Of a DNA stretch of 64,000 nt, positions 8,511-62,417 are shown piece after piece (within the stretch, counting starts at the first letter, position 1; every line of letters starts with the position of its first letter). A model generated the notes under the pieces. That model made no database searches and had not been told where the DNA came from. It saw nothing but the letters and a program-made list of their open reading frames with translations. Both the position numbers and the translations under genes were made by a program. This stretch comes from an uncultured virus (IMG/VR IMGVR_UViG_3300019776_000649) (lineage: Duplodnaviria; Heunggongvirae; Uroviricota; Caudoviricetes). The stretch is taken from IMG/VR virus record IMGVR_UViG_3300019776_000649; one strand, given 5' to 3'.

Positions 8511-8524
8511 GGTATACAGGGTAT

Positions 8525-24200: not shown

Positions 24201-27200
24201 CTCTCCGGTCTTATGAATCTTTTGGCTGAGCTGATCGAAGTCCTTATTTAGGCCGTCTTGGTATAGGTGCTGAGAGCCGAATCCTCCAGCGGCAGGCGGC
24301 TTGTTTGCGCTTTCTTGAACTCGCTTTGCCCAGGTCGCATCTGCTTCCGTGCCACGAATGATCTCGTTGGCTCGCCGTCTGGGATCACCCAGAATCTCAA
24401 TCTGCTGCTTGTTGTACTCTACCTCTGCGTCGGTGACTGCCTGAATAGACTGTGCCGCGTAAGCTGCCGCCGCCGCGAGCGCACTAAGCACCCCGAGGCT
24501 TAATGCCATTTTGCCTGCCATCGCTCCCGTTGAAACTCCAGCAGCAGTAGCAGTACTCGCCACCGTCTCATTGGCAACGGCCACTCCAGTAAGAGCGGTT
24601 CTCATCGGAATGAGTACGCCGTTGATGAACCCGAGTTTCTGCCAAGCAACCAGGGCACCACCAACGTTCGCTGCACCCATAACGACCGGGCCAAAAACAG
24701 CCGCCAGCCCACGAAGCATGAAGACGAAAGCCGTTAGTTGGACCACCCCATCCCGGATGGGTTGAGGCAGTTTCTCGAACATGTTGATGCCCCACGCGAG
24801 CACGTCAACAAACTGCTTGAAGATTTCCAGCGCCTTGTTAATCTCGCCCCCAAAGGACTCAACGAACATGGCACCAACTTCCTTGAGCCGGTTCTGGAAC
24901 TGATCGAGCTTGCCCTGAGTGGAGTTCAGTAAGGGATCGGTTTCTTTGCGGAGGTATCCCATCGCATCCCCGACATCCGTCAGACCCTTAACCGTGTCGT
25001 GGAAAGGCTGAATGGCGTTGCCAAGACGGGTAAGTGTGTCGGTCATGCGAGCGCCCCCAATGCCCATGCGGTCTAGCAGAGCAGGAACATCCTCCCCTGC
25101 CTTCTGAAGCTCTTGGAGTCTATCGGTGAATCGAAGAACCGCTTCACCAGCGTCCTTATTGAAGAGATCGACAAACTCTTTCGCGCCTGCATTTATCTGC
25201 GTGTCAGACTTGCCGCCATACATGGCCCTCGAAACAAGGCCAAGCTGCTTGTTGTACTTGCCAGTTCTGGCGTCATAGGACTTGACCCCGGAGTTGAGCA
25301 TCTGCATGTACTGGCTGATCGCCGTACCACCCATCTCCGGCTTGACACCAACGTTGGCAAGTGAAGCAGAAAAGGCGATGATCTGATCTTCGCTCATTCC
25401 GATAGTGCCACCCGTACCAGCGATGCGCCGGGTTAATCGGAAGATGTCCTGCTCGGTACCACCAGTGCGCGATGCCGCCATCCTGATCTTTGCCAGGTAC
25501 TGGGGGATAGCACCGATGCGATCATCGAAGACGTTATCTACTCCAGAGAGGCTAGGATTTCTCTTCTGTGCATCACGCAGGATCACGTTCTGCATGGAGT
25601 TGATCGTCTTGACCGTCTCCTCGGCCAGCTCGTTTGGCTTCATGTCGTTGACAAGGCGGTTGAACCTCGCCATAGCCTCGATGGGCTTCATCATGTCGCC
25701 AGCACGAACGTCCGCTTTTGCCAGCTCTTCCTTGAACACGTTCAGCGAGACGGCACCATCCTTAATAGGAAGAGTCTCCACTGCCGCTGTTCGGATTTGC
25801 TTGTTGAGCTTCGCGGTGTTGGCAACCTCCTGGTCGTATTGACCTTTGGTCATACGGCCACTTGCCACCATCGCCGAGGCATTGTTCTTCAGAACCGTAT
25901 CGCCACGGAGCCTAGCCTCTTCGATTTGAGCGAAGTCAGCGATACCGCGCTGGATCAGGTCAGCGGGAGAGAGTCCGATGCCCAAGGACTGCCACGAAGC
26001 ACCTGCATTGGTCATGGCCATGCCGATATTCCGCATGGCTCCAACCTTGGCGTCACGTCCCATGAAGTGTTCGGCCAGCGTAAGGAACGGGGAGTGATTC
26101 GGGTTGATGGTGCCACCTGGCCCCTGAAAGTGCTTGGCCACCATGTCCCGATCAAGCCGAGTGATCTGGTTCCAGGTGCGCTCCCATTCCGTACTGTACT
26201 GCTTGACCGTGTTCAGACGACCAATGAGTAGCTGTCTGTACTCGTCATCTCCGATCTGCCCTGTCCGGTGCAAATGGGACAGCTTCCTTCCGCCGACTCC
26301 AGATAGCTGGTTGAACTCGCTGTCGTCCATACGGCGCATCTTCTCAAGCAGTTGCTGTTGCTCCGTTGCCGAAAACTTCAGGGTAGAGTTGTTTGCCCAG
26401 GTCTGGTAGTGAGACCGTAGCTCCTCCTTTGTCCGAAGGTAGTCTTCACCGCCAGGATCGGCCCCACGGTGCTGTGCAAGCTGTCGGCGCAGTCCGTTCT
26501 CACGAGAAACAAAGAAAGCCCTTGTCTGATCGGTGTTGTAGTCAGACTCACTGGACTTCGCTGAAGCCTTCATCTGGGACTCAAGCCGCTCAGCGCGTGA
26601 AACGTATCTGAATCGCTCTCTTGCGCTGAGATTCGGGTCCTGTGCAGCGGTCCTTAGTGCTTGAGCATAGCTCACTGGGTCCTGCTTGCCGCCAGACATG
26701 TAGGCTGTCTCAGCCGTCAGTGCGCTACGCTGAACCTTTAGAGAGGTTGCTTCCGTGTCCTGGCGTTTGTTCTCAAGATCCGTGCGGATTGCTTCTCGCT
26801 GTGCTTTGGAGTCGGCCTTTTCCTGTGTGGTCTGTTTCCAGCTTTGCCACTGATTCTGGACTCTGTTGAGTCGGGCTTGGAGTTGACGCTGTTCCGCTTC
26901 GTTTTCGGCTTCGCCAATCAGGCCACGCATCCGACCAACACGGTTTCCGTAGGCACCAGGGCTCATCCCTCTGGTAATCTGCGATTCTAACTCCGAAAAC
27001 TGGGCTTTTCGGATGTTGCCAGCACTCTTGGCCGCTTCCTGCATCGAGCGGTTGATCTCTTTTGCCGCCTCTATTGCGTAACGCATCTGCTGTGCTGGTG
27101 ACAGGCTTGGGTCGGTAGACCTGCCCCCAAGATGGGTCAAGAGCATGTCGAGGTCTTGACGCCCACCCTTCAGATAGTTAGCACGAACGGCGTTATCTAC

Positions 27201-27647
27201 AGCCGAACGCGCATCTGTCACCTTGGCACCCGTGGAAGCCTTCAGTGCAGTCTCAGCGATCTGGTTGAGGCGAATTGCCCCACCCAGGTTCTCATAGTGC
27301 CGACGTGTTCCGTCAATCTGCTTTCTAGCGTACTCAGCAAACTGGTCAGGTGTCAGACGACCGACCTTGAGATCGAGCAATTTTGCCGCATCATCGAGCC
27401 GGTGCCGTTTTCCCGCTATCACGGGATCAGAGGAGCCAAACTGTCCATTCGCATATCGAGAGGGCTTATCATCTCCAACCACGTTCTTAGAACTGAGAGT
27501 TGTGTTAACGCTCTCCGCTGCTTTCTGAACTGCCTCAAGAGCCGAAGCGGTTTTCTTGGCTTGCTCTTCTGCCGCTTTGAGTTGGTCAATATGCTTGACG
27601 CCAACATCAATACTGGCGTCAATCTTGACATCTCTTCCGTTAGGCAT
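21240..27647 (-). CDS. Tape measure protein with NlpC/P60-like peptidoglycan hydrolase domain
   Basis: 2135 aa helical protein with TP901-like core (E.GGTA.S); GCAIFVS...GD.LFF...HTGVYVG. Confidence 0.9.
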   Translation of the reverse strand: MPNGRDVKIDASIDVGVKHIDQLKAAEEQAKKTASALEAVQKAAESVNTTLSSKNVVGDDKPSRYANGQFGSSDPVIAGKRHRLDDAAKLLDLKVGRLTPDQFAEYARKQIDGTRRHYENLGGAIRLNQIAETALKASTGAKVTDARSAVDNAVRANYLKGGRQDLDMLLTHLGGRSTDPSLSPAQQMRYAIEAAKEINRSMQEAAKSAGNIRKAQFSELESQITRGMSPGAYGNRVGRMRGLIGEAENEAEQRQLQARLNRVQNQWQSWKQTTQEKADSKAQREAIRTDLENKRQDTEATSLKVQRSALTAETAYMSGGKQDPVSYAQALRTAAQDPNLSARERFRYVSRAERLESQMKASAKSSESDYNTDQTRAFFVSRENGLRRQLAQHRGADPGGEDYLRTKEELRSHYQTWANNSTLKFSATEQQQLLEKMRRMDDSEFNQLSGVGGRKLSHLHRTGQIGDDEYRQLLIGRLNTVKQYSTEWERTWNQITRLDRDMVAKHFQGPGGTINPNHSPFLTLAEHFMGRDAKVGAMRNIGMAMTNAGASWQSLGIGLSPADLIQRGIADFAQIEEARLRGDTVLKNNASAMVASGRMTKGQYDQEVANTAKLNKQIRTAAVETLPIKDGAVSLNVFKEELAKADVRAGDMMKPIEAMARFNRLVNDMKPNELAEETVKTINSMQNVILRDAQKRNPSLSGVDNVFDDRIGAIPQYLAKIRMAASRTGGTEQDIFRLTRRIAGTGGTIGMSEDQIIAFSASLANVGVKPEMGGTAISQYMQMLNSGVKSYDARTGKYNKQLGLVSRAMYGGKSDTQINAGAKEFVDLFNKDAGEAVLRFTDRLQELQKAGEDVPALLDRMGIGGARMTDTLTRLGNAIQPFHDTVKGLTDVGDAMGYLRKETDPLLNSTQGKLDQFQNRLKEVGAMFVESFGGEINKALEIFKQFVDVLAWGINMFEKLPQPIRDGVVQLTAFVFMLRGLAAVFGPVVMGAANVGGALVAWQKLGFINGVLIPMRTALTGVAVANETVASTATAAGVSTGAMAGKMALSLGVLSALAAAAAYAAQSIQAVTDAEVEYNKQQIEILGDPRRRANEIIRGTEADATWAKRVQESANKPPAAGGFGSQHLYQDGLNKDFDQLSQKIHKTGELEKLRKSGASNAQIAGWLVKETQGRVDYANGRLGGKASGTGEEGPMDAVAKRMYDAANAIDLGGKDLKAGCAIFVSEVAKSAGVIGKSIDGAKALDEYLVKQKGGERIGLGTHGELLNKAKAGDVLFFQGPGFGSARFKDGPNGQSVGYHTGVYVGGGMMRHEGSGGVRTVPVRSVMQGNQTGMWSVRLGDAALGGIPNSPAKGGLDFLRDPKESASDKKKLAADPYRAKADAANAQAQEAEKQLEHLMARYKLGEKVDRQKMVDTAQAQINAMKRRDDQLVQVAKITGLNADGVQLNAAQLAGMPGNQQKKRRETMQAAIDQIDETVLQTRNKHLQAINESLQLEKKSIESKQKELEAQLGMTVGVENQHKIRAQVLDLEKKTLEKDYQIEKNKVLQIKDPAERKKAMVALDDEFSSKRRVLGLTGKKVERDKILGLLDEREKVYQSGGYADVSDSQKAQREAFPLLQKIATSRFLESMGLGPSMSQAETLEAQNKLKGIQFGMTKRGSERNLSMLELRSSLSSDPEAGYINLRTQQRARDKYLQKYDPDSLQQWRVEAREAERKADIERQTFRFDRELSRVGFGTGGTIENARKAYESAMARARTQEDRNRISGAYRSSLGEMVNGTFMNTGSLSGVNGAMRSTLGEYNHIMAGAKEQGDLQTYMQTGQAAQGLVGDMAKSAYDRIRFLPREQRAGAASAINDLIQSIPEWKELPKDLREGLQKSLKDSLSDARMEWDERYRGRIEARRSFDRGAEGSIEGVGSSLIGNVLKGSGDKNKEAIKQFWDSILGQGADSLAHVAWTNVLKPEFTRMFDALKGQFKGIWEAGQVSWGQMISMSVSAMYLAGQQGKKGKKGATWGGALGAIAGSFIPGVGTLAGASIGANMGGAYSSGGGIGGAVLAGAGSYAGMQAGGKIGGTPRNTGVPDVGYGNGFDAGGGAVSVKPASSRSVTNNITINAGDNQTADHAAQRIQERTYRAIHQGT

Positions 27648-34300: not shown

Positions 34301-35398
34301 CTAGGCGAAGTCAGACGGGGCGGTGTACGCACCAAGACCGGCGTCGATCTTGAACACAACACCGTTTCGGCGCTCGACAACGCCAAAGCCGATCAGACGC
34401 TGAACCGTGCGAGCCTTGAGCTTCGGATGAACGTCCGTGGGCTCAACAACGCGAAGGTCGCTTGACTCGATCACGTCACGACGTGCCATGAGGGGCTTGT
34501 CCAGCTCGGAGCCCTCGATGTAGGCAAACCCATATCCAGAGGGAATCCAGGGCTTTACCCAGAACTCAGGACCATCCTCAAGAACGCCGAGGAATCGGTC
34601 GTCGAGCATGATGTTGTCGTACATCGCGTTCATCTCAGGAGTGAGGTGCGCGGTGTTGACGCCAAGGACAATGCGAGGATCACGGGCCTTCTCAAAGCCA
34701 GTCAGCGCCAAAACAGCAGCAGTCTGAGCTTTGTTGACCAGAACGACAACCTTACCGGAGCCCTTCAGGTGCTCAGTCAGATTATCCTGGATGTCTTCAA
34801 TGTTGTCGTTGTCCAGGGCATCAATCACCATGTAGTGAGTGTGCGTCGAACCATCGAACGTGGCATTGTAGCGACCGACAGGAATCGGATCACCATCGGC
34901 GTTCAGGAGCCGCTTGACCGGAAGTGCCGAGTTGTTGATGTAGCGGTCGTTGTAGGTGTAGTTGTTATCACCAAAGATCGCTTTGCCCATGCGGTATTGA
35001 AGCCACGCGGAGTCAGCCGTCAGGACAGCATTGAGCTGGGTATTGAACTGCTGAACCGTGATGAGCTGCATCATGCGCTCAGTCCATTGGGTTCCAGTCC
35101 CACCCAGGCCGAGCGGAAGCCCGATCTCGTAGTGCTGGAAGGACACAGCATCAGCGTCAGGGCGACCGAACTCAAGCTCGATGTCCTGGAAGGTAATCGA
35201 GTCCGCAGCACCAAAGCGGTGGCGTTGCTCGTTGGTTTCGCCCTGAACTAGGGTCCCACGCATCATGGCCTCAAGCTCGTTGTGGGCATCGAGAACGACC
35301 TGGAACTCGTCCCACGCCTTGTCGATACCGTACTTGTAGATCGTATCGTTGCCGTAGTCCTTAATGTCCAGGATCGAAAGGGTTTTCTTAACTCCCAT
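34301..35398 (-). CDS. Major capsid protein
   Basis: 365 aa; follows protease/scaffold and decoration genes; strongly biased codon use. Confidence 0.75.
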   Translation of the reverse strand: MGVKKTLSILDIKDYGNDTIYKYGIDKAWDEFQVVLDAHNELEAMMRGTLVQGETNEQRHRFGAADSITFQDIELEFGRPDADAVSFQHYEIGLPLGLGGTGTQWTERMMQLITVQQFNTQLNAVLTADSAWLQYRMGKAIFGDNNYTYNDRYINNSALPVKRLLNADGDPIPVGRYNATFDGSTHTHYMVIDALDNDNIEDIQDNLTEHLKGSGKVVVLVNKAQTAAVLALTGFEKARDPRIVLGVNTAHLTPEMNAMYDNIMLDDRFLGVLEDGPEFWVKPWIPSGYGFAYIEGSELDKPLMARRDVIESSDLRVVEPTDVHPKLKARTVQRLIGFGVVERRNGVVFKIDAGLGAYTAPSDFA

Positions 35399-40251: not shown

Positions 40252-42021
40252 CTACATCAGGCGTCTGGATGGTTTTCGTCGATCTGCATCGGCAAGCTCC
40301 CGTACCCGGCGCTCTGCCTTCTCTCCTGTAAGAGGCCCCGTAACAATCTCCTTGAGTGAGCCAGCAGTGGGAGGTCGGCGATAGGCTCGTACAGGCTCAG
40401 TCATGCGAAGACCCGCATCCACAATAAGCCCGTCGCCAAGCCCAACCACCTTGCCGCCATCTGTGCGAATAGGCATCCTCATGGTGACAGCGGTCGGTGT
40501 GCAGAAAGCGAGGTTGAGCGCGTCCATATCGTCTGGCGATCTCTTGAGGCGCTTGCGAGTGATGTCCTTGGACTCCACCTCTCGGCCACGCCCAGTGATA
40601 CGGTATTTTGGCCCCATCGCCTGAGCGCGGAGCTTGTTTAGTGCCTCTTGTGGAAGCCGGGAAAGATCGAGCTGACCGCGATCAGCCATCTCAGCCGTCA
40701 CGAACCAGACTTCAGACCTGGAGTTCGGGTACAGCTCTGGCTCCATAGGCTCAGAATGGCCAGACTTCGTGACCACATTCCAGCCAGCAAAGTAGTCCAG
40801 GGTAGCGTTTCCAGTGGCATCATGGTCAAGGACAATCAAGACTCTTTTTGGATCTTCGCCGACATAGTTGCTCAGGTGAGAAAAATGCCGGTTGCGCTCC
40901 TTGACCAGCTTCAGGATCGCGTCTTTAATGCCCTGAGCGATCTGCGGAGGACGCCACCCGTTGTGAGTCTCCCAGTGAAGTGCAGCAGGACCACGGCGAC
41001 CAACTATCGAGGTGTAATCGTTACCAGACCAAGCCACGTCGCAACCGATCTGAATCGGCTTGTCGATCCACTGGTTCTCCGGGATGGGAAGGTACAGCTC
41101 AGTGTCGTGGCGTACAGCGGCCTTCCATGTGGCATCCGTCCAGATGGACTCAGCCGAGTTGGATGCCCAGCGACCCAGCACACGGGTCTCCATCATCGAG
41201 CCTGGACGATAGCACCTGGGATTGTCCAGGTCTCTGTGGCCCATCTCGTCCGGGAGTGCCCAGAAGATGTCGCTGGCCCTACGATCCCTCGGATCAATCT
41301 CCTCGGCGTAGCGGCGAACCATACCGTCGATGTACTGACAGGCAACAGCGCCAGGATAGGGGATAGGTAGTCCATGAAGCTCGGCGTGGATGTTGGGGTG
41401 ATCCATCGCGTTGATGTCCATCACATACCACTCGCCAGACAGAACCTCCTGGTACATGCGACTTGTGTTGTCGGTTGGGTTGAAGATGCAGAGCCACCAA
41501 CAGCCGTCTTCGCCCGTCATCATTCCTTCGGCGGCGTCGAAGAACTCTCCAGCGACACGAACAGCCTCATCAAAGACGATCCCGATATGCTCCGCGTGAC
41601 GCCCCTGGAAGGCATCACCGCGCCGTGCAGTCATTCCAACGGCGAAATGGCCTGGATTGCTCTCCATGCGCGGGGCTGAAGGCTTCAGGTCGTTGTGACC
41701 ACCGCGCTCTCCACGCTGGAGCCGAATCTCTTTCCAGAGGATGTCAACTACCTGCTGCTGGGTGGGAGCTGTCGTGATGGTGATCCCAGGATCAAACGAA
41801 TCGTAATGCCAATTGACAAGTCCCGCCGCGAAAAAGCTCTTGCCTACGGCGTGGCTGGCTTGGACAGCGACCTTGGGATTTTTCTGAATCGCCAGCGCAA
41901 TGTGAATCTGCCTTTTCCACCACTTGACCTTCAGCACTTGCTGTGCATACAGGCTCGGGGACTTCCGGTACGCCTGAAGGAGGAGGGCGTACATCTCCTC
42001 TTCGGACATCCCTGCTTCCAT
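40252..42021 (-). CDS. terL: Terminase large subunit
   Basis: Walker A SHAVGKS, VFDEA, NP motif; nuclease motifs GCDVA and SPDDMDAL. Confidence 0.92.
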   Translation of the reverse strand: MEAGMSEEEMYALLLQAYRKSPSLYAQQVLKVKWWKRQIHIALAIQKNPKVAVQASHAVGKSFFAAGLVNWHYDSFDPGITITTAPTQQQVVDILWKEIRLQRGERGGHNDLKPSAPRMESNPGHFAVGMTARRGDAFQGRHAEHIGIVFDEAVRVAGEFFDAAEGMMTGEDGCWWLCIFNPTDNTSRMYQEVLSGEWYVMDINAMDHPNIHAELHGLPIPYPGAVACQYIDGMVRRYAEEIDPRDRRASDIFWALPDEMGHRDLDNPRCYRPGSMMETRVLGRWASNSAESIWTDATWKAAVRHDTELYLPIPENQWIDKPIQIGCDVAWSGNDYTSIVGRRGPAALHWETHNGWRPPQIAQGIKDAILKLVKERNRHFSHLSNYVGEDPKRVLIVLDHDATGNATLDYFAGWNVVTKSGHSEPMEPELYPNSRSEVWFVTAEMADRGQLDLSRLPQEALNKLRAQAMGPKYRITGRGREVESKDITRKRLKRSPDDMDALNLAFCTPTAVTMRMPIRTDGGKVVGLGDGLIVDAGLRMTEPVRAYRRPPTAGSLKEIVTGPLTGEKAERRVRELADADRRKPSRRLM

Positions 42022-42145
42022 TGTAAGTCCTCCATTTCATTTAGTTTGGTGCTTGCATTTGTTGACCAAGCGATTAAATTCAATAAAGTTGTGTCATGGT
42101 GATTTTTACAGGTTATTTATTTTCGTGAATAACCGAAACTGCGCT

Positions 42146-42295
42146 ATGGCAAAAGTAAAACGCAGTGGAATCAAAAAGGGCAAAATGTCTGGTCTAGTAA
42201 CTCGTGCTTGGAGTGGGCACACTTCCTGGGCACCAAACTTGAAAAAGAACAATCCCAAGCCTCTACCGGGTTCATTTGAGAATGGCAAGAAATGA
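42146..42295 (+). CDS. Small basic peptide, antisense to the late operon (moron-like)
   Basis: 49 aa K-rich ORF in an AT-rich patch right after a 53-bp element. Confidence 0.4.
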   Translation: MAKVKRSGIKKGKMSGLVTRAWSGHTSWAPNLKKNNPKPLPGSFENGKK

Positions 42296-42356
42296 TTCTT
42301 CTAGCGAGGAGGCTCGTTATTGACTTCTAAAAATCAAGAACGAGCCGTAACTCAGC

Positions 42357-42647
42357 CTAGAAGCGCCAGCCAGAAATGTCCTTCTCAGCACGAAGAAGGA
42401 TTTTGTCTGCCTTATCCGCAGGAGCCCCAGCGAGGTCTCGCAGATTCAGGCCGACGATCAGAGGAGCAACGAAAGCCGTGATCAGGGGATTGAGTTTCAC
42501 CGCAACCAGAAGATGGTCAACATCCTGTTGCTTGACAACATACCCCTTCAAGACTTCCTGGCGGATATGCTCAACGAATCCGATCAACTGCTTCTTCACT
42601 GGCTCAAGAACCGCGTTCTGAGCAGCTTTCTTCAAGTCGAATTTCAT
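42357..42647 (-). CDS. Hypothetical protein
   Basis: 96 aa with RBS AAGGA. Confidence 0.7.
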   Translation of the reverse strand: MKFDLKKAAQNAVLEPVKKQLIGFVEHIRQEVLKGYVVKQQDVDHLLVAVKLNPLITAFVAPLIVGLNLRDLAGAPADKADKILLRAEKDISGWRF

Positions 42648-42675
42648 AGTGTGATTTCCTTTCTTCAGAGTGGGA

Positions 42676-42885
42676 TGGAGCTACCAAGCTCCAGTGGCTA
42701 CCGAACGCTGTTCATTGCGGAGCTACGAAGCTCTGCGTTGTGAGGAGGAGCCCTGAGTGCCTGCCCCCATACACTTGGGGCTCCACTCCTCACCGTCCCT
42801 TATCAACCGCACACCGGTAGATTGGTCTACTGGTGGGGAACCGGGACACCTGTCGAAGGATTGTGCGAATGACCGATCCTTCGCT
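42676..42885 (+). ncRNA. Candidate structured antisense RNA B
   Basis: Five consecutive hairpins; the non-canonical pairs are G-U on the + strand. Confidence 0.4.
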
Positions 42886-42895
42886 ACCTTCGCGG

Positions 42896-43576
42896 CTATA
42901 TGCCTGGGCCTCCTATGGAGGGTGGCAATTCGTCTATCTCAAGCACCTCTGCGTCGATGATGGATGCGGCTTGCTTCAGGCGCTCGGCCAGCGACATGCC
43001 CTCATTCACTTCAATGCCAACACGCTTGAGGTTGATGTTGTTCTGAGTGACCTGTGCGTTGATCTGCACCTCAGGTCCCTTTTTTTCGTCCACGAGATTG
43101 CCAATGTCGCTCAGCGTTTCGCGGAACTCGCGCACCAGTGAAGCCTGAGCAATTTTGTTAACCCCAGGTCCGTTCTTGATCCGAAGAGCACCAGTCAACT
43201 GGTCAGTCTCGGTCAGTTCTGACTTAAGAAGCTGGGCCATCTCAGCCAGCTCCTTGACTCGCCGTTCCTTGGCTGCGAGACCGGACTGAAGCGCCTCAGT
43301 ATCTCGACGACCCAGCATGGTCAGGACATCAGGACGTTTGCGCCAGTAGGAGACAGCCCTCTCCGTGTAGGAGAGAACATGCCCATCTTCGATCAGTATT
43401 TTCACGATGTCTCGGTTGGTGTGACCAGAGACGATCAGCTCCTTGATACGCTGCTCTCCCAGGTCGGTGAGCTTTGCGGTTGGCGGCTTTCTGTCTGGAA
43501 CTGAGCCTGTCTCCAGGTCTATCTCTGCGGTGCCGTCGCTTTGCTTTTTGGGTTTTGTGGGGGCAAGTTCACTCAT
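42896..43576 (-). CDS. Probable terminase small subunit
   Basis: N-terminal HTH-like region then coiled coil; upstream of terL; ATG lies inside a 53-bp element. Confidence 0.55.
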   Translation of the reverse strand: MSELAPTKPKKQSDGTAEIDLETGSVPDRKPPTAKLTDLGEQRIKELIVSGHTNRDIVKILIEDGHVLSYTERAVSYWRKRPDVLTMLGRRDTEALQSGLAAKERRVKELAEMAQLLKSELTETDQLTGALRIKNGPGVNKIAQASLVREFRETLSDIGNLVDEKKGPEVQINAQVTQNNINLKRVGIEVNEGMSLAERLKQAASIIDAEVLEIDELPPSIGGPGI

Positions 43577-43708
43577 TTGATTTAATCGTTTGCTCCGTAT
43601 AGGCTCGTCAGCGAATAAATCAAATAGATCGCCGCACCTTTACCCCATTGGTTGCCAGGTCGGACGCAGAGAACAATAAGGTGCGACACTGCACCTTCTC
43701 CCGATGAA

Positions 43709-44023
43709 CTACACACTGGCTTCCATCTCCATCTGGTGAAGAACATTGCGCTGCGCCTGCTTGAATCTCGATGAGCTTCTAGCCTCACGGAGGTTTGGCC
43801 CAATGGTCTCCATTCGGTTGATGAAGTTGCCATCGGCATCCTGGGCTTCACCAGCTATCTGGGCCAGCTCTTCCAAATCCAAGCTGGACATGCAGGACTT
43901 GATGTCTCGGAATCGACCACCAGCTTGTCTGGCCAGTCTCCCGATTTCACGTTCGGTCTCTACGATCTGGGGCTCTTCCAGTGCTTGACGCACCTTATTC
44001 AGGTCTTCAAAGAATCGTTTCAT
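43709..44023 (-). CDS. Hypothetical protein, first late-strand gene
   Basis: 104 aa with RBS GAGGAG. Confidence 0.7.
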   Translation of the reverse strand: MKRFFEDLNKVRQALEEPQIVETEREIGRLARQAGGRFRDIKSCMSSLDLEELAQIAGEAQDADGNFINRMETIGPNLREARSSSRFKQAQRNVLHQMEMEASV

Positions 44024-44038
44024 GAGTTACTCCTCAGC

Positions 44039-44077
44039 AAAAAAAAGAACCACCTTCATGGCGGTGAAGGTGGTTCT
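44039..44077 (-). terminator. Strong intrinsic terminator directly upstream of the first late gene
   Basis: 13-bp stem AGAACCACCTTCA/TGAAGGTGGTTCT plus U tract on the - strand. Confidence 0.8.
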
Positions 44078-45142
44078 GGAGGTTTCTCACGAAAGAAACT
44101 CGTTATGTCGTCTCGCACTTGTCATTAAAGCCAACCCCTCTTCGGGTCTTTACAGACAAGTAGAAATATTTTCACTGGGTAATTGTGGTTCGTCGGGAAG
44201 AGTGGCATGTATGTATGCGTGACTCTCTCCGTAGTCTCCTGGTAACAACAGTAATGTGAGTGCGGCGAAGCCCGCACGACTGAGGAACGAAGGAGGAGGA
44301 CTGGAGCCGCGACTGATTCTCAGTCATAGACCAAAGGTCGTTATCTCAAAACAGTTCTTGACCACAACAGCCTTATAACAGTATTGTTATTACTAAATTT
44401 TGTTATTGAAAAGATAACATTCATTACATTGATCTTTAGATATATGTCCCCGTAGAAGATTAGAAGATAAATATTAGATAATTCTTTACAGGGGATTTTT
44501 ACACGGGAAGTTTGGATGTATCGCTCAGGATAGTACCCTTCCCCTACCCAGCACTCCTACCAGCAAACAAAACCGGAGGGGGGCTTTTTGAGACGAGTCT
44601 GTTTGCTGTCCTTTGTAACAGGGTGAAACACTAATTCCCCTCTACAATCCCTTCCGATCTGTCAAAAACTGTTCACCCTGGTAACTGTTTGCTCTGTGAA
44701 TTGTTGACAGTTAAAAATATGTCTACACACAAATACTAATAGTTATAGTCACTACTACTACTATAATTATAAATACTGTTCTAGTCACAGTACCTTTGTC
44801 TCAATAAAGTCTCTATCTTTTAAGTACCTTTACCAGTGTCGGTAGAGGGGAAAAAGATTCAAGAGAGATTTCTCCTGTTAACAATACCAGAGTTAATAAC
44901 TGTCAATTATTATTAACTGCGTTACATATCAATATTTATCAATAAATCCCTAAATACTATAAATAACTATTAATAAGACACACTATTTTGTGTGTTCATA
45001 CAGTATACGCGCAAAAGCCCTCTTTCCCTTCGTCGTAGTATGCCGATCTGCCCTGAGGGGTGGTGAGAGCAAGAGTAGAGCGAGGGCACCAAACTTCCCC
45101 TCTTGACTCCTCTTCAATAATCGAACCACAAAAGTATCTTAG

Positions 45143-45530
45143 CACAATTACTAGCAATAGTTGTGACAAAGGGTAGGACTGTGCCTCAGTAGATAGCCCA
45201 TGAAAGGCGGCTATCGGTAGGTGACAGGCAAGCAAGGCTGTCGCTAGTCTCCGAGAGGGGGCGGTGCGTCAACATCGGGGGGAACCTTTGTCCCCGGTGG
45301 AGGGTGAACCTAATCACCCGAACCCTTCCGGGCTGAAGAGCGTCCGGCGTATCCCTAGAGGATAGTGTGAGTACGGGTAGCAAACGGCATGACTTGTCTG
45401 TCAGAGGCTATCACCTTCGGGAAGGAACGCTAGGGGGCAGTGTTGCCTCGTCTCCTTGAAAAACCTATCGAATGGATAGGGATACGAAACACTTACCTAC
45501 CCTTTGGAAGGGGTCTGGCTTGCCAGACGG
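45143..45530 (+). ncRNA. Candidate large structured ncRNA C / leader RNA
   Basis: 10-bp closing helix 45168-45177/45496-45505 with at least 9 internal hairpins; G-U pairs favour the + strand. Confidence 0.6.
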
Positions 45531-45569
45531 CGTAAGAATCGTGCGAGGAACAACTATCTAGGAACCACT

Positions 45570-45725
45570 ATGTCTATCGGAACAACATTCACGCTCACCC
45601 TGACTGACCACCGTCTGTCGGGCCATCGGCTTGTCTGCACTGACAACTCCTATGGCTTTGTTGAGTGCCATGCCCTGGGGTACCGATGGCTCTTTGTCGA
45701 AGGAGAGTACCATGTCTGCCCCTAA
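45570..45725 (+). CDS. Small hypothetical protein
   Basis: 51 aa with AGGA RBS; overlaps the next start. Confidence 0.45.
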   Translation: MSIGTTFTLTLTDHRLSGHRLVCTDNSYGFVECHALGYRWLFVEGEYHVCP

Positions 45726-46110
45726 GAACATACCTGCTAAGCGTAAGCGATCTGAACACTACATCGGCTTGTCCACTGAGGCAAAGGCCGATATTCGCCT
45801 GTCTGAGAACTATCAGAGGGCGAACTCTGCCAAAAGCGTGAACTCTGGCTCCTTTGCCAAGGGTCAGCTCTTGAACCGTAACGCCACGTTCCAACGGCGA
45901 CCTACCCTTAACTACGACGCCAAGCAGGAGAACCGTCGCACCAACTCCATGACCAACTATGCCGGGATGATTGCGGAGGAGGTGCGTCTCGATGCCCTCG
46001 CTACTCGCTACCCCAACGACAAGGCTATCGCTGGCAAACTACGCAAAATCCGCACTACCCTTGCCACTGTGCAGGGACTGACTATCGCTAATCTCAGCTT
46101 GAAAGGCTAA
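45712..46110 (+). CDS. Basic hypothetical protein
   Basis: RBS AAGGAG. Confidence 0.7.
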   Translation: MSAPKNIPAKRKRSEHYIGLSTEAKADIRLSENYQRANSAKSVNSGSFAKGQLLNRNATFQRRPTLNYDAKQENRRTNSMTNYAGMIAEEVRLDALATRYPNDKAIAGKLRKIRTTLATVQGLTIANLSLKG

Positions 46111-46114
46111 TTCC

Positions 46115-46846
46115 ATGACTGCAACTCTTGAAACCGCTATCGCTCCTGTTGTCGCAGAGGGCGCTAACCCCTCGTCTGTCGCCGCTATCATCGCCGCCAA
46201 GATCGGCACTCCTACCCCTGCTGCTAAGAAGCCCCGTGCTCCTCGTGCCAAGAAGGGCGATACTGTCAACACCAACGGCGCTCTGCTGGTCACTCCCACC
46301 GAGGTTGTCACTGCTACCCCTGCTCCTACTGGTGTCGCAACCAAGGGGCAGTTCTCCCTTCGTCCCGGCTCGGTGATTGACGCTGACAAGGCACGTCGCA
46401 ACCTTGACGAAGTGTTCCGTCTGATCGACGAGGGCAAGCCACGTAACGAGATTCGCAAGACCGAGGCACACAAGGCTCTGACCGGCCTTGCTCGGAAGAT
46501 CGGCTATGTCGAGGCACAGAAGGCCGTCTCTGAGGCTGAGCGCATGGCTCACCTTCGGGACGAGTATGCCGACCAGATCGAAGACAGCCGTGAGGAGTTC
46601 CGCCGCATCGTCAACACTAAAGCTCAGGAGGCTAAAGCGTCCAAGAACGGCGGTGAGTTCGCTCTGACCATGACCCTTCGTCCTGGTGACGCTACCCCGA
46701 CAATCGAGGAGCATGATACCGATGGCTCCGCCGCGACCGAGTTCATGAACCTCAAGAAGGCCGCTCAGTCCGGTCGCCTCACTGTCTGTGGGATCATGTT
46801 CGCCGTGGTTTACAAAGACGGGTTCTCCAAGGTCGTGACGCTCTAG
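46115..46846 (+). CDS. Hypothetical protein with Ala/Lys/Pro-rich N-terminus
   Basis: 243 aa, strongly biased codon use, followed by a terminator. Confidence 0.8.
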   Translation: MTATLETAIAPVVAEGANPSSVAAIIAAKIGTPTPAAKKPRAPRAKKGDTVNTNGALLVTPTEVVTATPAPTGVATKGQFSLRPGSVIDADKARRNLDEVFRLIDEGKPRNEIRKTEAHKALTGLARKIGYVEAQKAVSEAERMAHLRDEYADQIEDSREEFRRIVNTKAQEAKASKNGGEFALTMTLRPGDATPTIEEHDTDGSAATEFMNLKKAAQSGRLTVCGIMFAVVYKDGFSKVVTL

Positions 46847-46868
46847 TCACCGAGAATCTGTCTCTCTT

Positions 46869-46901
46869 GCCCCTCAGGAAGTGTGTTCTGAGGGGCTTTT
46901 T
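46869..46901 (+). terminator. Intrinsic terminator
   Basis: GCCCCTCAG/CTGAGGGGC plus TTTTT. Confidence 0.85.
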
Positions 46902-48072: not shown

Positions 48073-48246
48073 CATTTTTATATTCTCAAAGTAGAGAATG
48101 ATTATCCATTTGATTTAATCGCTCCGAAGGCTCTCCGATCCGAGCGATTAAACCAAACGTAGTGATTCTTTCCTAGTCATATTCCTTTTTATAACGACCC
48201 TGCTTGACTTTGTTGAGCAGGGTTTTCTCTTTCAAGGAGTTCTGCA

Positions 48247-50474: not shown

Positions 50475-50611
50475 TCCCCAAGCACTCCCGACCAGTTAAA
50501 GAGACGTTCCGCCAACGTCTCTTTTTCTTTTTCAAGCCCGAAGACACAAGAGCTAAGGGCATCCACAAGATGCGTAGGGTGCTGATCCAACGCAGGAGAT
50601 TTAAGAAATGA
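50471..50611 (+). CDS. 46-aa basic protein (below the ORF-track cutoff)
   Basis: ATGA overlaps on both sides. Confidence 0.55.
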   Translation: MIPKHSRPVKETFRQRLFFFFKPEDTRAKGIHKMRRVLIQRRRFKK

Positions 50612-53274: not shown

Positions 53275-53308
53275 AGCCGCCCAACTAAATCAAATGGGGC
53301 GGTTTTTT
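53275..53308 (+). terminator. Intrinsic terminator overlapping a 53-bp element
   Basis: GCCGCCC/GGGCGGT plus TTTTT. Confidence 0.55.
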
Positions 53309-55382: not shown

Positions 55383-55672
55383 GGAAAGGCACAAAGCTAC
55401 CGGACCCTTTCGTGTTCCTCGGGAAGGGGTATGTCTGGGCTGAGACAGGATCGCCTCCAGTGAACGCATTCCGAATCGTCCCTGATCGAAACGGAATCGT
55501 CCAGATGCAAGGCATTGACTCCAGCGGGTTCCCCTTAAAGCGTTCCGGTATCGGCATACGAATTAGCGAAATGGACAGGCTGTGCCTGACCTGGCTACAG
55601 CGCAGAGGCTTCCTGTGCCACGACCGCACCTTGAAGGAGGTGCTAGATGAAATAGGAGTAGAGCAACTATGA
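55379..55672 (+). CDS. Hypothetical protein
   Basis: ATGA coupling. Confidence 0.65.
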   Translation: MRKGTKLPDPFVFLGKGYVWAETGSPPVNAFRIVPDRNGIVQMQGIDSSGFPLKRSGIGIRISEMDRLCLTWLQRRGFLCHDRTLKEVLDEIGVEQL

Positions 55673-56277
55673 CGGCATCAAATGAGAGGGCAAGCACACT
55701 TGAGATCGACGATGAAGCCCCACTTCGCCACGGTCTCAAACTGGGAGGAGACTTGCCCAACTTCAAGATGGATGATGAGCGAGTCAAGAAGGCTTTGGGC
55801 CTGATCGCCACTGCAAGGGAGCTGGTTATGGTTCGATCAGTGGAGATGGCGACCATGATCGTTGAGGGAGGGGAGATGGACGTAGATATTCGTCCCTTTT
55901 ACTACGCTCCAGACGACCACCTGCTAACGGACGTTAGTGAGAGCATCATCTACGTTGCTTCTGTGGCTGGTGGTCGCCCCTCCCTCTTCCGTAAGTTCGA
56001 TGGAACTAACACTGCCACCTTCCCTGAGGGCAGTAAGCTGGTCGTCCCCACCAATAACGTCAACGGATACACGGTAGATGCCGCCATGCCAGAGTGGTGC
56101 ATCGCCGAGTTCCTTCACCACATCTCACTGGGACTCTTCCAGTACGCCGAGATCGCTGTCGCTCAAAAAGCACAGAAGCGAATCAATGCCTTCGCCAAGT
56201 CCTGGGCTCCCGCAATGGAAGCATTGCGAGGCTGGGATGAGGGTCGGCCAAAGAAAACAGCGCCTAATGCCCGTTAA
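55669..56277 (+). CDS. Hypothetical protein
   Basis: ATGA coupling, RBS AGGAG. Confidence 0.7.
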   Translation: MTASNERASTLEIDDEAPLRHGLKLGGDLPNFKMDDERVKKALGLIATARELVMVRSVEMATMIVEGGEMDVDIRPFYYAPDDHLLTDVSESIIYVASVAGGRPSLFRKFDGTNTATFPEGSKLVVPTNNVNGYTVDAAMPEWCIAEFLHHISLGLFQYAEIAVAQKAQKRINAFAKSWAPAMEALRGWDEGRPKKTAPNAR

Positions 56278-56462
56278 ACACTAGGGCAACACCCGCTGAT
56301 TTGATTTAGTCGCTCGGTTGCCCAAGGCACACCAGCGATTAAACCAAATGGTGCCTCGCAGTCACACAATCCGAAGGCACCTCGCAATTCCAGCGAACAT
56401 GAGTTGTGTGAAATCCAATCTCAGGGACCGCTATCCCTGATCCCCACAGGAGCAATTGAACT

Positions 56463-58199
56463 ATGTCTAAAGAGACGCAAGAAACGGAAGAGATTATCGA
56501 GACAGCCCCCAAGAAAAAGCGCACGGCAAAGCCGGTGCCTGTCTCAACGACTGTGACCAACGATCCCCGCGTTGTCGAGCTGGTTGCCGGTGGCATGACT
56601 GAGGAGGAGGCAATCTCCTTGATTGAGGCCGAGGACGCGGCAAACGCCATTAGCCCCTCTCCTTCCCCGGTGAACACGGACGAGATCAAGCAGGAGCTTG
56701 GAGACCTCCTTGATATGGCCGTGCAGTTCGCAAAGGAGACCGAGGAGCATATCGCCGAGCTAACAAAGGATGGCCCCATTCAGATCACTCTGAATGATCC
56801 GCCCAAGAAGGAGAAGGGTAAGCGCACCGTCAAGCCAACTGAACAGGATACCGAAGAGCAGAACGACGCTCGCAATGCGGCCTTCGGCGGCGATCCCAAC
56901 TACGTGGTGCCGAGCTTCGGCAAGGCAGACCAAGAGCGTGGTTTCACCAATGCCCTCGGTCTTGAGTCCACTGAGACCCACCGTCACGTTGCTAAGGTCT
57001 GGCAAGAGCAGTGCTTCACGCTTCCCGAGATTCGTGACAGCATCGGTCGTGCTTCGGAGAGCAAGAAGGACGAGCACATCCTTCTTTCTTCTCTCCGTAT
57101 GAAGCAGGATGATAAGGGATACGTTGCGCTTTCCAACGACTCCCCGTTCACGGGCTTTGGGCTCAACTCTGCATGGCGACATGCGGGTTTGCCTGACGGT
57201 GTTCTGAAGTTCCTTGCTCACCCCGACCACGGTGGGAAGTACAACGGACATATCGTCACTCTGTACAACGACGCGATCAAGGGCGTCGAGAAAGGCGATC
57301 AGAAGGACGCGCTGGTTCGCTTCCGCAATATCCCTAACGTTGATGGCGGCAGCACACTGGCTGTCCGTGCTATTCGCTCCCGTGGATTCACAATCATCGA
57401 CAACGACGCTGTGATGGCGCTAGTGATGAACGCGATCCCGAAAGAGGCTCACAAGCACACCTTGGCCAGCCATGTTGTTCACGACGGCGACAACATCGTC
57501 ATGAATATCCTTCCACCGGACTATGTAAAACGGCGCGAGGATTCGGAGTACGGTGTCGGTATCGCCGTGAAGAACTCTGAGGTTGGCGAGTCTCCACTGA
57601 CCGTTGAGCCTTTCCTCTTCAGAGCGATCTGCTACAACGGTATGATCTGGGGTCGCCGCGATGCTACCGAGGCCAACGTCACCCAGCGCCACTCCGGGAT
57701 GGTCAACTGGACCGAGCTTCAGGAGAAGATCAACCGGGCGGTGCTTGCCGCTCTCACCGAAGGGCAATCTCTGCTGACGCAAATGGACCTTGCCAAGCAG
57801 GTTCAGGTTCATGATCCAGAGAAGCTGGTGGTCTACTTGTCTGAGACAAATGGGCTCAACCGCACTGTCGGTCGTGCTTGGTGGAACGGCTACCAGGAGA
57901 CGCTTCAGAATGAGGGTACCAAGGCCGAGGTTGAGGGCAACTTCTTCGGTCTGGTGCAAGGGCTGACTCTGGCAGCACAGGGCTTCACCGGATTTACCCG
58001 CAATGGCATCGAGCGTACTGCCGGTCAGATTCTGGCTGAGGAGCTGACGGATGGTATTGAGCGTATGCGGGATCGTGTGGCCCGTGCTGAGCAGTTTGCT
58101 GATCGTAGAACTGGCGCTCAGGTTGACCACTATCTGTACGGTCGTGTCGAGATCGGCCAGGACGCACCCGTCCTGACGATGGAAGCAATAACCGGATAG
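56463..58199 (+). CDS. DUF932/DUF945-like phage protein with long acidic N-terminal extension
   Basis: RAIRS..F..IDN, GI.V.NSEVG...L.V...LFR.IC.NGM and H.G motifs. Confidence 0.7.
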   Translation: MSKETQETEEIIETAPKKKRTAKPVPVSTTVTNDPRVVELVAGGMTEEEAISLIEAEDAANAISPSPSPVNTDEIKQELGDLLDMAVQFAKETEEHIAELTKDGPIQITLNDPPKKEKGKRTVKPTEQDTEEQNDARNAAFGGDPNYVVPSFGKADQERGFTNALGLESTETHRHVAKVWQEQCFTLPEIRDSIGRASESKKDEHILLSSLRMKQDDKGYVALSNDSPFTGFGLNSAWRHAGLPDGVLKFLAHPDHGGKYNGHIVTLYNDAIKGVEKGDQKDALVRFRNIPNVDGGSTLAVRAIRSRGFTIIDNDAVMALVMNAIPKEAHKHTLASHVVHDGDNIVMNILPPDYVKRREDSEYGVGIAVKNSEVGESPLTVEPFLFRAICYNGMIWGRRDATEANVTQRHSGMVNWTELQEKINRAVLAALTEGQSLLTQMDLAKQVQVHDPEKLVVYLSETNGLNRTVGRAWWNGYQETLQNEGTKAEVEGNFFGLVQGLTLAAQGFTGFTRNGIERTAGQILAEELTDGIERMRDRVARAEQFADRRTGAQVDHYLYGRVEIGQDAPVLTMEAITG

Positions 58200-60821: not shown

Positions 60822-62417
60822 TTGGAAGCTGGCCCGGAAGATAGCAATGTCTTCCGGGCTCAATTCTTTTATGGAGAACTTATGAATAAGCCTATCATCG
60901 GGGGTCGAATACCCCTTGGACGCGAAGCAACCATGCTTCGTGAAGGGCTCCCCACAGGGGAGATTCCACGTCAAGACGATTTCGCCCCGAAGAGGGGTAC
61001 TTCTAAAATCGAATACGAAGAACCCGGAACGGGTGGCATTGACGAGTTCGATGTCTCAGCCTTTATCATGGAGGCTCCTCCATCTGCCCTAGATCGCATT
61101 ATCGAACAGCTTCTGGTTCGTCGCCGTGGCAACGTAATGGATGTTGTCGGTCTAGTCGAAACAGCCGCCTACCGCCTTGGCATGGATCGGTCTTCTGGTG
61201 CCTTCAACCGATTCACCGAGGGCCTTCGTGCCGCAAACACCCTGGATAGAGACATCGACCTTCCTATGATCTGGTTTGGCCTCTACGAGCAAGCCTTGCA
61301 CTTGTTCAATGGGCAGAGTGGTGCTGGTAAGTCCTCCGTCATGTACAACATCGCCATGCACCTGGCCATTGGCAAAGAGCTGTGGGGCATTCCTGTCAGC
61401 GCCCCTCAAAATATCGTTTACCTTGATCCCGAAAACCGCGTTGTTCGGCCACACAAGCTGTCCCGAATCGCGGAGAAGATGGGAATCGAGGTTCCAGACA
61501 ATCTTCACTTCCATGACGGCGAAGGGATTGACCTTTCCGATCCCCGCACCCTGAAAGAGCTTGGCGACCTGCTCATGGACAAAGGCGCTACAGGGCTAAT
61601 CATCGACCCGTGGGTGAACCTCTTTGGGACGCTCAACGAAAACGACAACGCGGAGGCCGCTCGCCAGGGCAAGGCTCTGCTCGACCTTATCAAGAGGACT
61701 GGTTGCTGGGTAGTAGCTGTCCACCACACAGGCAAGTCGTCTGAGGGCGGCGGTCGAGGCGCTTCTGCTAGAGAAGGAGTCTCCCGCGTCATCATGGACT
61801 TGGTTCTTCCGAGTATGGCCCGTGAAGAGGACGACGACTACAATCCTGAGCGTAAGCAACTGCGCGAAGACTTCGTTCGCCTGATGGTTCGCAAAGACGG
61901 TATCGGGGGGATGAAGTCCAGCGTGTATCTACAGATGCTCGGAGAGAAGGCGCAGGACTGTTTTCGCCGTGTCAGCTTCCGCGAATGGATGAATAACCTA
62001 CGGGAGGCCGCAGTCTCTAAGGGGATGTCCAAAGAGGAGCAGGCTGGCGTGATGATCCTAGAGTTCCTGTCGGATAAGTACCGGGTTGTCCCCCGCAAAG
62101 AGATCATCGACTACTTCAAATCGCTTGGGCCTAAAGCTCCCGGAGTCACAGCAGTCAATGATGCTCTTGTTACTCTTACCAGTGGAGAAACCCCGTCCTT
62201 GAAGGAACAGTACATTGGAGGCAAGGGAGGTGCAAAAGGCTATTATCTTGGAACCCTAGACCCAGCTACCTTTGTTAACGAAGTGACCGGAACCTCTGCT
62301 GCCGATGATGTAAATGAGATGGTAGAGCTTTCAGCAGGGAAAAAGCAAGTAGACGAGGAATACGTTTTACCGACAGACGGTGTGATTACTCCACCGCCAG
62401 GGGCTTTTGAAGAGTAA
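60822..62417 (+). CDS. RecA-family (AAA_25/RepA-like SF4) replicative helicase
   Basis: GQSGAGKS, YLDPEN, LIIDP, VHHTGK and RGASA motifs; true start may be downstream. Confidence 0.85.
   Translation: MEAGPEDSNVFRAQFFYGELMNKPIIGGRIPLGREATMLREGLPTGEIPRQDDFAPKRGTSKIEYEEPGTGGIDEFDVSAFIMEAPPSALDRIIEQLLVRRRGNVMDVVGLVETAAYRLGMDRSSGAFNRFTEGLRAANTLDRDIDLPMIWFGLYEQALHLFNGQSGAGKSSVMYNIAMHLAIGKELWGIPVSAPQNIVYLDPENRVVRPHKLSRIAEKMGIEVPDNLHFHDGEGIDLSDPRTLKELGDLLMDKGATGLIIDPWVNLFGTLNENDNAEAARQGKALLDLIKRTGCWVVAVHHTGKSSEGGGRGASAREGVSRVIMDLVLPSMAREEDDDYNPERKQLREDFVRLMVRKDGIGGMKSSVYLQMLGEKAQDCFRRVSFREWMNNLREAAVSKGMSKEEQAGVMILEFLSDKYRVVPRKEIIDYFKSLGPKAPGVTAVNDALVTLTSGETPSLKEQYIGGKGGAKGYYLGTLDPATFVNEVTGTSAADDVNEMVELSAGKKQVDEEYVLPTDGVITPPPGAFEE

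Follow-up and report, generated by a model that had tools for sequence, protein, structure and literature searches.

A candidate multi-helix RNA domain ahead of the early operon of an uncultured temperate phage

The control region and its predicted folded domain

The 64,000-nucleotide (nt) stretch of the uncultured virus IMGVR_UViG_3300019776_000649 that we analyze here, hereafter the window, is a temperate phage or prophage in which about 1.5 kb without a credible open reading frame (ORF) separates the first late gene (43709-44023, - strand) from the first + strand ORF (ATG at 45570). The element of interest lies in this gap: a + strand domain at 45166-45507, predicted to fold into a closed RNA of many helices. 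An earlier note on this DNA had proposed a non-coding, multi-stem RNA of the + strand at 45143-45530, before the early operon, and that proposal survives; the sequence is near-invariant in contigs from three other studies. We regard the feature as a real and credible new structured-RNA candidate. As an RNA family it is putative and new, within a kind already known.

All helices and flanking hairpins that the note had listed are present in the sequence. The long-range closing helix (P1) is perfect, as described, but is 11 base pairs (bp) long and not 10 bp. Two further long-range complements, 45222-32/45393-403 and 45348-57/45477-86, were absent from that list. The elements of the domain and its immediate flanks are the following.

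45166-45507, + strand: core folded domain, 342 nt, about ten helices inside the 11-bp closing helix P1
45167-45177/45496-45506, + strand: closing helix P1, AAAGGGTAGG/CCTACCCTTT, 11 perfect pairs, pair probability 1.00
45192-98/45209-15, + strand: hairpin GATAGCC/GGCTATC, pair probability 0.98
45221-27/45238-44, + strand: local hairpin GTGACAG/CTGTCGC, one G-U pair
45222-32/45393-403, + strand: inner long-range helix UGACAGGCAAG/CUUGUCUGUCA, 11 pairs of which one is G-U, mean pair probability 0.77
45247-62, + strand: hairpin GTCTCC-GAGA-GGGGGC, with a GAGA tetraloop (45253-56) on the + strand only
within 45273-99 (45273-81/45291-99), + strand: hairpin CATCGGGG/CCCCGGTG, pair probability 0.97
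45302-07/45314-19, + strand: hairpin GGGTGA/TCACCC, pair probability 0.96
45328-47, + strand: hairpin CCGG/CCGG, present in the sequence
45348-57/45477-86, + strand: perfect 10-bp complement CGTATCCCTA/TAGGGATACG, an alternative pairing or pseudoknot partner
45350-64, + strand: hairpin TATCC/GGATA, present in the sequence
45414-25, + strand: hairpin CCTT/AAGG, present in the sequence
45464-80 (45464-69/45475-80), + strand: hairpin CCTATC/GATAGG, pair probability 0.95
45143-45165, + strand: 5' flanking hairpin with an 8-bp stem, inside the conserved block covered by a contig of run X6 (below)
45513-45528, + strand: 3' flanking hairpin GTCTGG/CCAGAC, without a U-run and not called as a terminator

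The minimum free energy (MFE) fold and the centroid fold both give the closed domain 45166-45507 with its roughly ten helices, and leaving the 5' strand of P1 unpaired costs 13.4 kcal/mol. The inner helix 45222-32/45393-403 encloses the hairpins at 45247-62, 45273-99, 45302-19, 45328-47 and 45350-64, and it excludes the local hairpin GTGACAG/CTGTCGC. In a nested fold it is also mutually exclusive with the helix 45348-57/45477-86, which can be forced at a cost of only 1.1 kcal/mol. Three alternative interior topologies result, at -140.3, -139.2 and -139.9 kcal/mol. Since all three fall within 1.1 kcal/mol, the outer frame of the domain is well defined and its interior is not. The 3' flanking hairpin is not an intrinsic terminator, as it has no U-run.

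Conservation in other freshwater samples

Near-invariance in independent samples is, at the level of sequence, the main new support for the RNA candidate. Nine public runs contain part of 44500-46900, four from one study (the possible source) and five from five others; the five outside the possible source study each hold 5-9% of the sampled words, and there is no RNA run among the nine. We compared four runs with a small share, X5 to X8, of which X6, X7 and X8 are freshwater metagenomes of three studies. These three yield five contigs of 151 nt, which together tile 44903-45432.

44903-45050: X6 contig, 13 other letters
45058-45201: X6 contig, 1 other letter
44972-45119: X7 contig, 6 other letters
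45206-45356: X7 contig, 1 other letter
45282-45432: X8 contig, 2 other letters

All ten differences listed for X6 fall inside 44948-44987, or about 25% over 40 nt. From 44988 to 45432 only two positions vary, 45050 (G>A, X7) and 45318 (C>T, X7 and X8). The near-invariant block therefore spans at least 445 nt: it takes in 44988-45165 and no fewer than 267 nt at the 5' end of the core. The X6-X8 contigs end before the 3' third of the domain, where the 3' strand of P1 lies. The change at 45318 converts G45303-C45318 to a G-U pair in the GGGTGA/TCACCC helix on the + strand, and would produce a C-A mismatch on the - strand. Conservation begins upstream of the folded domain:

44988-45165, + strand: upstream conserved block, weakly folding (z -0.86), with one listed difference (45050)

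This block would belong to the leader as its 5' part, or else be a control region. X5 contributed only a 267-nt identical piece, 46093-46359. X6-X8 gave no contig longer than 40 nt on 45433-46900 and just 36-40-nt partial matches on 44500-44900; at a contig depth of 2-4, this gap in cover says nothing on the flanking genes of the relatives.

Composition, strand and coding potential

The description of the element as a GC-rich island beside AT-rich DNA was accurate: the G+C fraction (GC) is 0.29-0.31 at 44700-44999 and 0.52-0.59 at 45100-45399, with a GC skew of +0.19. The preference for the + strand, drawn in the note from G-U pairs, holds as well. The core folds at -140.3 kcal/mol on the + strand versus -119.9 kcal/mol on the - strand (20 kcal/mol better), with 12 versus 8 G-U pairs, and the favored strand is that of the downstream operon.

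In agreement with the earlier view that the stretch holds no credible ORF, the longest ORFs overlapping it have 79 and 65 amino acids (aa), both on the - strand. None of its eight small ORFs matches Pfam at E<=1, and a search of 5.8 billion proteins turned up no candidate for the 65-aa - strand ORF. Could an unrecognized or decayed protein gene, or a non-standard code, account for the region? Reading TAG or TGA as sense does open ORFs of 114-137 aa. Each of these needs 2-6 recoded stops, whereas the neighboring genes all read normally in table 11, and the Pfam and protein-database results for the small ORFs point the same way. We consider a hidden gene very improbable.

Folding compared with chance

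Against dinucleotide shuffles (100 for z-scores and 500 for stem counts) the + strand core, with its MFE of -140.3 kcal/mol, has z -3.54, and none of 100 shuffles is as good. For the span of the earlier note, 45143-45530 (+ strand), z is -2.93 and one shuffle of 100 folds equally well. Two or more perfect stems of at least 9 bp occur together in 4 of 500 shuffles; here there are two Watson-Crick long-range stems of at least 10 bp. The genome background was set by 24 controls, each a 342-nt window of this 64-kb DNA. Their mean z is -1.0 (sd 1.5), and the MFE of the core lies below all 24 (-72.7 to -128.0 kcal/mol). The fold thus exceeds chance only moderately.

Several observations weigh against a structured RNA under selection. 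One of the 24 controls reaches z -5.41 and beats the core, and another reaches -2.95. The - strand also scores -2.96 over the earlier span and -2.89 over the core. Perfect inverted repeats of at least 11 bp at 50-400 nt spacing number 10 distinct cases in 64 kb versus about 5 expected. Sliding 200-nt windows inside the core give z of only -2.3 to +0.8, and the scan has no peak that singles out the core; these sub-windows are weak because the signal depends on long-range helices. Given the background windows and the frequency of inverted repeats, thermodynamics alone is therefore suggestive and not decisive. The interior fold, as modeled, is undefined, with three topologies within 1.1 kcal/mol. 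The sharp step in identity near 44988 may mark a mosaic joint left by recombination and not the action of selection, and at a contig depth of only 2-4 single differences may be errors. There is no good sigma-70 promoter directly before the core, the nearest promoter-like site being about 400 nt upstream, so the domain probably lies several hundred bases into the leader.

Homologues belong on the same side of the balance. A search of 45000-45570 with nhmmer and blastn against 11, then 25, loci related through the large terminase (TerL) found none; neither did BLAST against 5 genomes, against 401 Armatimonadota genomes (chance matches of 21-28 nt only) and against the 68 genomes of the order. 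The single-sequence covariance model R1, run on the 25 loci and the 68 genomes, recovered only itself, at 442.8 bits. Exact or degenerate 20-24-mers had no match in IMG/VR and JGI metagenomes, and no phage or plasmid record matched the region. The collection of homologues that the earlier note had called for thus produced no diverged member in any collection searched, and for this reason there is no covariation support. The flanking proteins are useless as anchors, because ORF51, ORF132 and ORF243 match only themselves; ORF243, ORF132 and neighbor proteins of 226 aa and 377 aa have no relatives in IMG/VR, and the ESM Atlas gave no usable match for neighbor proteins.

Much of this would fit DNA with no specific function, an ordinary 5' untranslated spacer whose folding comes from a G-rich composition of 56% GC and chance repeats, and whose near-identity comes from a recently exchanged mosaic block. 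The more extreme control window, the negative background mean, the surplus of inverted repeats, the similar z near -2.9 on both strands, the weak 200-nt sub-windows and the ambiguous interior all agree with it, as do the failure of every search to find a homologue and the mosaic nature of the phage, in which only TerL is common to the 25 related loci. The spacer explanation does not account well for the lowest MFE among all windows tested, for two long perfect stems that appear together in just 0.8% of shuffles, or for approximately 445 covered bases with two variable positions beside 40 with ten in contigs of three studies. The sole variant inside the core (45318) is, in addition, structure-neutral on the + strand, and a phage genome packed this tightly seldom has a gene-free gap of 1.5 kb. 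On this evidence we judge the spacer unlikely, though it has to be taken seriously. A functional structured RNA of some kind, acting in cis or in trans, appears somewhat probable; that it is specifically a functional structured leader RNA comes close to an even call.

Searches for known RNA families

The Rfam scan that the note had asked for returned no known family. With Rfam 15 and gathering thresholds, the whole window gave only the transfer RNA (tRNA) at 51-124; at E<=10 the interval 44900-45700 gave four weak matches, all far under threshold, and the remaining control region 42000-45000 gave nothing at E<=1. Matches to ROOL (RF03087), GOLLD (RF01998), group I and II introns, RNase P, tmRNA, 6S, OLE and HEARO were absent, and ARAGORN found no tRNA-like or tmRNA gene in the region. 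These results bear out the earlier statement that signatures of RNase P, tmRNA and group II introns are lacking.

Four particular candidates were tried and rejected. The c-di-AMP riboswitch (ydaO, RF00379), the best of these weak matches, reaches 16.6 bits (E 0.31) where the threshold is 38, and only half of its model aligns, positions 40-99 of 134, at 45267-45325. A group I intron that would link two in-frame ORFs, 45060-45176 and 45504-45725, has no intron-model match, and group I introns are not characterized by paired ends. The hammerhead-like CUGAAGA at 45333 is followed by neither stem II nor GAAA. A miniature inverted-repeat transposable element has no second copy in the window, and the X6 contig is near-identical across the left repeat, 45058-45201.

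Candidate promoters, downstream genes and terminators

The control region and the beginning of the + strand array contain the following.

44722-44749, + strand: promoter-like TCTACA-16-TATAGT, a consensus match only (3 sites vs 2.5 expected), candidate early promoter
44788-44760, - strand: promoter-like site, back to back with 44722-44749
45570-45725, + strand: ORF51, 51 aa, AGGA 6 nt before ATG, only itself in 5.8 billion proteins
45712-46110, + strand: ORF132, 132 aa, basic N-terminus, GAAGGAG ribosome-binding site, start overlapping the end of ORF51
46115-46846, + strand: ORF243, 243 aa, only itself in a large protein library
46869-46896, + strand: strong intrinsic terminator, 11 pairs and a T-run, ending the first transcription unit
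48196-48224, + strand: terminator-like hairpin, 13 pairs
50498-50524, + strand: terminator-like hairpin called by the scan
near 53275, + strand: CCGCCC...GGGCGG stem followed by T6, likely terminator, whose 14-nt loop fails the terminator-scan criteria

The AT-rich part of the gap (44300-45000) looks like a switch region with candidate operators. Inverted copies of a TTGACAGTTA / AACTGTT..TTGAC motif stand at 44704-13 and 44897-906 and related copies at 44350-62 and 44661-73. No repressor-family protein was recognized in or near the 1.5-kb control region. Sigma-70-type sites are meaningful in this phage, since the ribosomal RNA (rRNA) promoters of the likely host group are canonical: upstream of 16S in three Chthonomonadaceae genomes, the rRNA operons carry tandem promoters CTCTTGACA-17-TATACT (TTGACA/TATACT), with TG before. 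Five rRNA leaders of the three genomes have in common a block CCTTGA-A-TC-CG...TTTTG-GT (TTTTGTGTGG), about 230 nt before 16S, which probably corresponds to boxA and boxC. Comparable pieces in the phage leader are only CTTGAC (45102-07) and TTTTGTGTGT (44986-95), which are differently arranged, and no clear boxA emerges.

Neither Pfam nor PHROG has a match for ORF51, ORF132 or ORF243, and ORF132 finds only itself among 1.84 billion representatives. The predicted folds leave the ribosome-binding site of ORF51 unsequestered, and the terminator scan places no terminator between the RNA domain and ORF51. The earlier note had placed terminators at 46869 and 53275. The former is confirmed at 46869-46896; at the latter the stem and T6 are visible, but the loop exceeds what the scan accepts. 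Between 47000 and 56500 there is only one promoter-like site on the + strand vs 6.1 expected on both strands. With strong terminators in the array and a single + strand promoter-like site, some read-through device is likely. Among the phage ORFs scanned, none was recognized as belonging to an antiterminator family, be it N, Q or another.

A possible cis-acting leader RNA

We favor a reading of these results in which the core 45166-45507 (+ strand) would be an RNA domain under selection within the long untranslated leader of the immediate-early operon. Transcription would probably start in the AT-rich control region upstream, with 44722-44749 as candidate promoter. The transcript would run through the conserved, weakly folding stretch of about 180 nt and then through the closed multi-helix domain, and would continue into ORF51, ORF132 and ORF243 without an intervening terminator. 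Acting in cis while still nascent, the domain would make RNA polymerase resist the terminators at 46869, 48196 and 50498 and the likely one near 53275, the mode of action of HK022 put RNA and of the large conAn2 RNA of pLS20. The helices, the strand bias, the lack of ORFs and of a family match, the near-invariance and the downstream terminators are shown; that the region is transcribed, from which start, in which exact fold and with antitermination activity is what we infer. Taken whole, the proposal is plausible, with the balance tipping somewhat against it. The idea of a cis-antiterminator gains plausibility because at least three + strand terminators (46869, 48196 and 50498) lie in the array and none lies between the RNA and the first ORF; antitermination as the specific function would still be unlikely.

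The same leader could instead regulate by attenuation or RNA-based immunity, for which phage P4 CI RNA is the model: alternative leader pairings, or a small RNA processed from the leader, would control termination or translation of the early genes. The three mutually exclusive folds within 1.1 kcal/mol would suit such a switch, and CAAAGG at 45167-72 has two possible partners, the CCTTTG of 45285-90 and that of 45501-06. The lack of a recognized repressor-family protein in or beside the control region also fits. Near-isoenergetic alternatives are, however, common in any 340-nt sequence; the + strand has no intrinsic terminator within the domain or right behind it, and the ORF51 ribosome-binding site is not sequestered. 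An attenuator is, in our estimate, quite improbable.

If the cis-acting leader is true, no structured regulatory RNA would have been described before it from an Armatimonadota phage; its family, new and with a complex fold, would be a candidate both for structural studies and for a new way of reading through terminators. A bolder version of it would be an undescribed class, a multi-branched RNA of about 340 nt that acts in cis and independently of protein, giving put-like terminator read-through with a ribozyme-sized fold in Armatimonadota phages, as one case of a wider habit of temperate phages to head early operons with ornate RNAs. We rate this version as unlikely. If the proposal is untrue, it teaches how convincingly a G-rich spacer can mimic an RNA through a few chance helices.

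Comparison with known systems

In size and placement, conAn2 RNA, part of the bipartite conAn antitermination system, is the closest precedent. PMC8191782 describes it as a non-coding region of 260-600 bp that heads multi-terminator conjugation operons on plasmids of Gram-positive bacteria. In pLS20 a 238-bp center lies between 20-bp inverted repeats and includes an essential GC-rich tract; the flanking repeats are dispensable, and conAn2 works with the small protein ConAn1 (PMC8191782). Our region has a comparable plan. It is a large ORF-free region that opens a long same-strand operon with several intrinsic terminators, and its locally GC-rich center is bracketed by a long-range inverted repeat, near a small protein gene without a known family. 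The 342-nt core sits in a leader of about 580-800 nt, with + strand terminator-like sites at 46869, 48196 and 50498. Members of conAn show poor mutual sequence conservation (PMC8191782), so a lack of sequence matches is expected for a conAn2-like RNA. Other features fit the precedent less well. In that system conAn1 lies upstream of the RNA, whereas the small ORFs here are downstream, and the pLS20 repeats are dispensable, whereas P1 dominates the fold here. The precedent also belongs to Firmicute plasmids and not to an Armatimonadota phage.

The put element of phage HK022 is a small two-hairpin element. The RNA of putL and putR, according to PMC9378689, suppresses pausing and termination on its own, acting in cis on RNA polymerase. 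The likeness is a nascent RNA that heads an early operon of lambdoid style, with no N-like family recognized in this phage either. On the other side, put is far smaller than the 342-nt multi-branched domain, which lies hundreds of bases from the nearest promoter-like site and has no sequence or model match to it. The comparison to put in the earlier note therefore fails as membership, because this is a closed multi-branch domain of 342 nt and not a small two-stem element. Leaders of the lambda nut type resemble the region in their gene-free operon head leaving a divergent control region; enterobacterial leader modules differ in that none matches here by Rfam, and the region has no tRNA-like module.

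ROOL and GOLLD are large ornate RNAs, often found in prophages, and like them the candidate is a large, many-helix, ORF-free RNA in a prophage. The resemblance, also raised in the earlier note, does not extend to membership: the covariance models of RF03087 and RF01998 fail to match even at E<=10, and the domain is smaller, is not beside a tRNA cluster, and runs co-oriented and continuous into an operon. A free-standing RNA that acts in trans on a host or phage partner, cut from the leader at P1 and the flanking stems, as has been proposed for ornate phage-associated RNAs such as ROOL and GOLLD, may nevertheless be considered. The closed domain has its ends joined by an 11-bp helix, and an additional 8-bp complement (45157-64/45550-57) lies outside the core. 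The many-helix architecture and the very high sequence invariance would suit such an RNA, and the three downstream genes are orphans, so that the RNA need not be tied to them. Speaking against it are a 3' end with neither a terminator nor a recognizable processing site, the absence of any ROOL, GOLLD or other Rfam match, a length of 342 nt that is below that of those RNAs, and the lack of a tRNA-like module. We take the trans-acting RNA to be rather unlikely.

A replication element would be yet another use for such a structure. ColE1 RNA II is the precedent for an RNA-primed replication origin; here the structured transcript would prime or activate an origin, and the adjacent tract of 29-35% GC would be the unwinding region. 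PMC7157519 reports for extrachromosomal mycobacteriophage prophages RNA-based origins of 400-500 bp that are transcribed, ORF-free and essential in cis, and places parABS in those phages where an integration cassette would be, with the non-coding RNA next to parA. Our region is ORF-free and of comparable kind, and its GC-rich structured block abuts a very AT-rich tract with repeated motifs. Those mycobacteriophages have no integrase, whereas the window has a tyrosine integrase beside a tRNA-Arg and a separate replication module, its own AAA_25 primase/helicase-like gene being 15 kb away. No ParA or ParB family appears among the 41 ORFs scanned against Pfam, and the region lies between divergent promoters, like a genetic switch. 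An origin is thus improbable here.

Genome context and likely host

A tRNA-Arg at 50-125 (ARAGORN; the Rfam gathering-threshold match covers 51-124) adjoins the tyrosine integrase at 142-1215, whose Phage_integrase domain matches at 142-1212 with E 5.6e-32. Late genes on the - strand include the tape measure (21240-27647), major head protein (34301-35398), protease, portal and TerL (40252-42021). The + strand array starts at about 45.6 kb, consists mostly of unknown genes and reaches the AAA_25 primase/helicase-like gene at 60822-62414.

Relatives of TerL at 34-50% identity occur on 11 IMG/VR contigs and 14 genome contigs, and 12 of the latter are labeled Chthonomonadales, Chthonomonadaceae, Chthonomonas or Armatimonadota; most of the 25 loci derive from Chthonomonadales MAGs. 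The host is therefore probably a member of the Chthonomonadales, Armatimonadota. TerL is the only gene common to the window and these 25 loci, save an integrase match in two loci and one weak match; the portal, which adjoins TerL, has no tblastn match in the 25 loci. By these comparisons the phage appears otherwise isolated and mosaic.

Other structured sites in the window

On the late side of the control region, a strong intrinsic terminator of the - strand (44046-44077, 13-bp stem, T8) stands directly ahead of the first late gene (43709-44023), before both its ribosome-binding site and its start. This arrangement suggests that the late operon is controlled by read-through of an ORF-poor - strand leader of about 700 nt (44078-44750) from the promoter-like site 44788-44760. 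In the + strand array, a perfect inverted repeat of 17 bp (47792-47808/48107-48123, about 300 nt apart, 36-40% GC) is followed by the terminator-like hairpin 48196-48224. The control window with the strongest folding signal of the 24, 56100-56441 (MFE -128.0 kcal/mol, z -5.41), spans the gap between the genes 55669-56277 and 56463-58199, which holds two terminator-like hairpins of the - strand.

Beside the integrase there is a defence-like island (2263-9612) that encodes a fusion of a PLD nuclease with an SNF2-type helicase (1067 aa), an Eco57I/MmeI-type methyltransferase (1015 aa) and a DUF6731 protein. A perfect 16-bp inverted repeat, 10969-10984/11366-11381, brackets about 380 nt of the convergent gap between this island and the lysis and tail genes.

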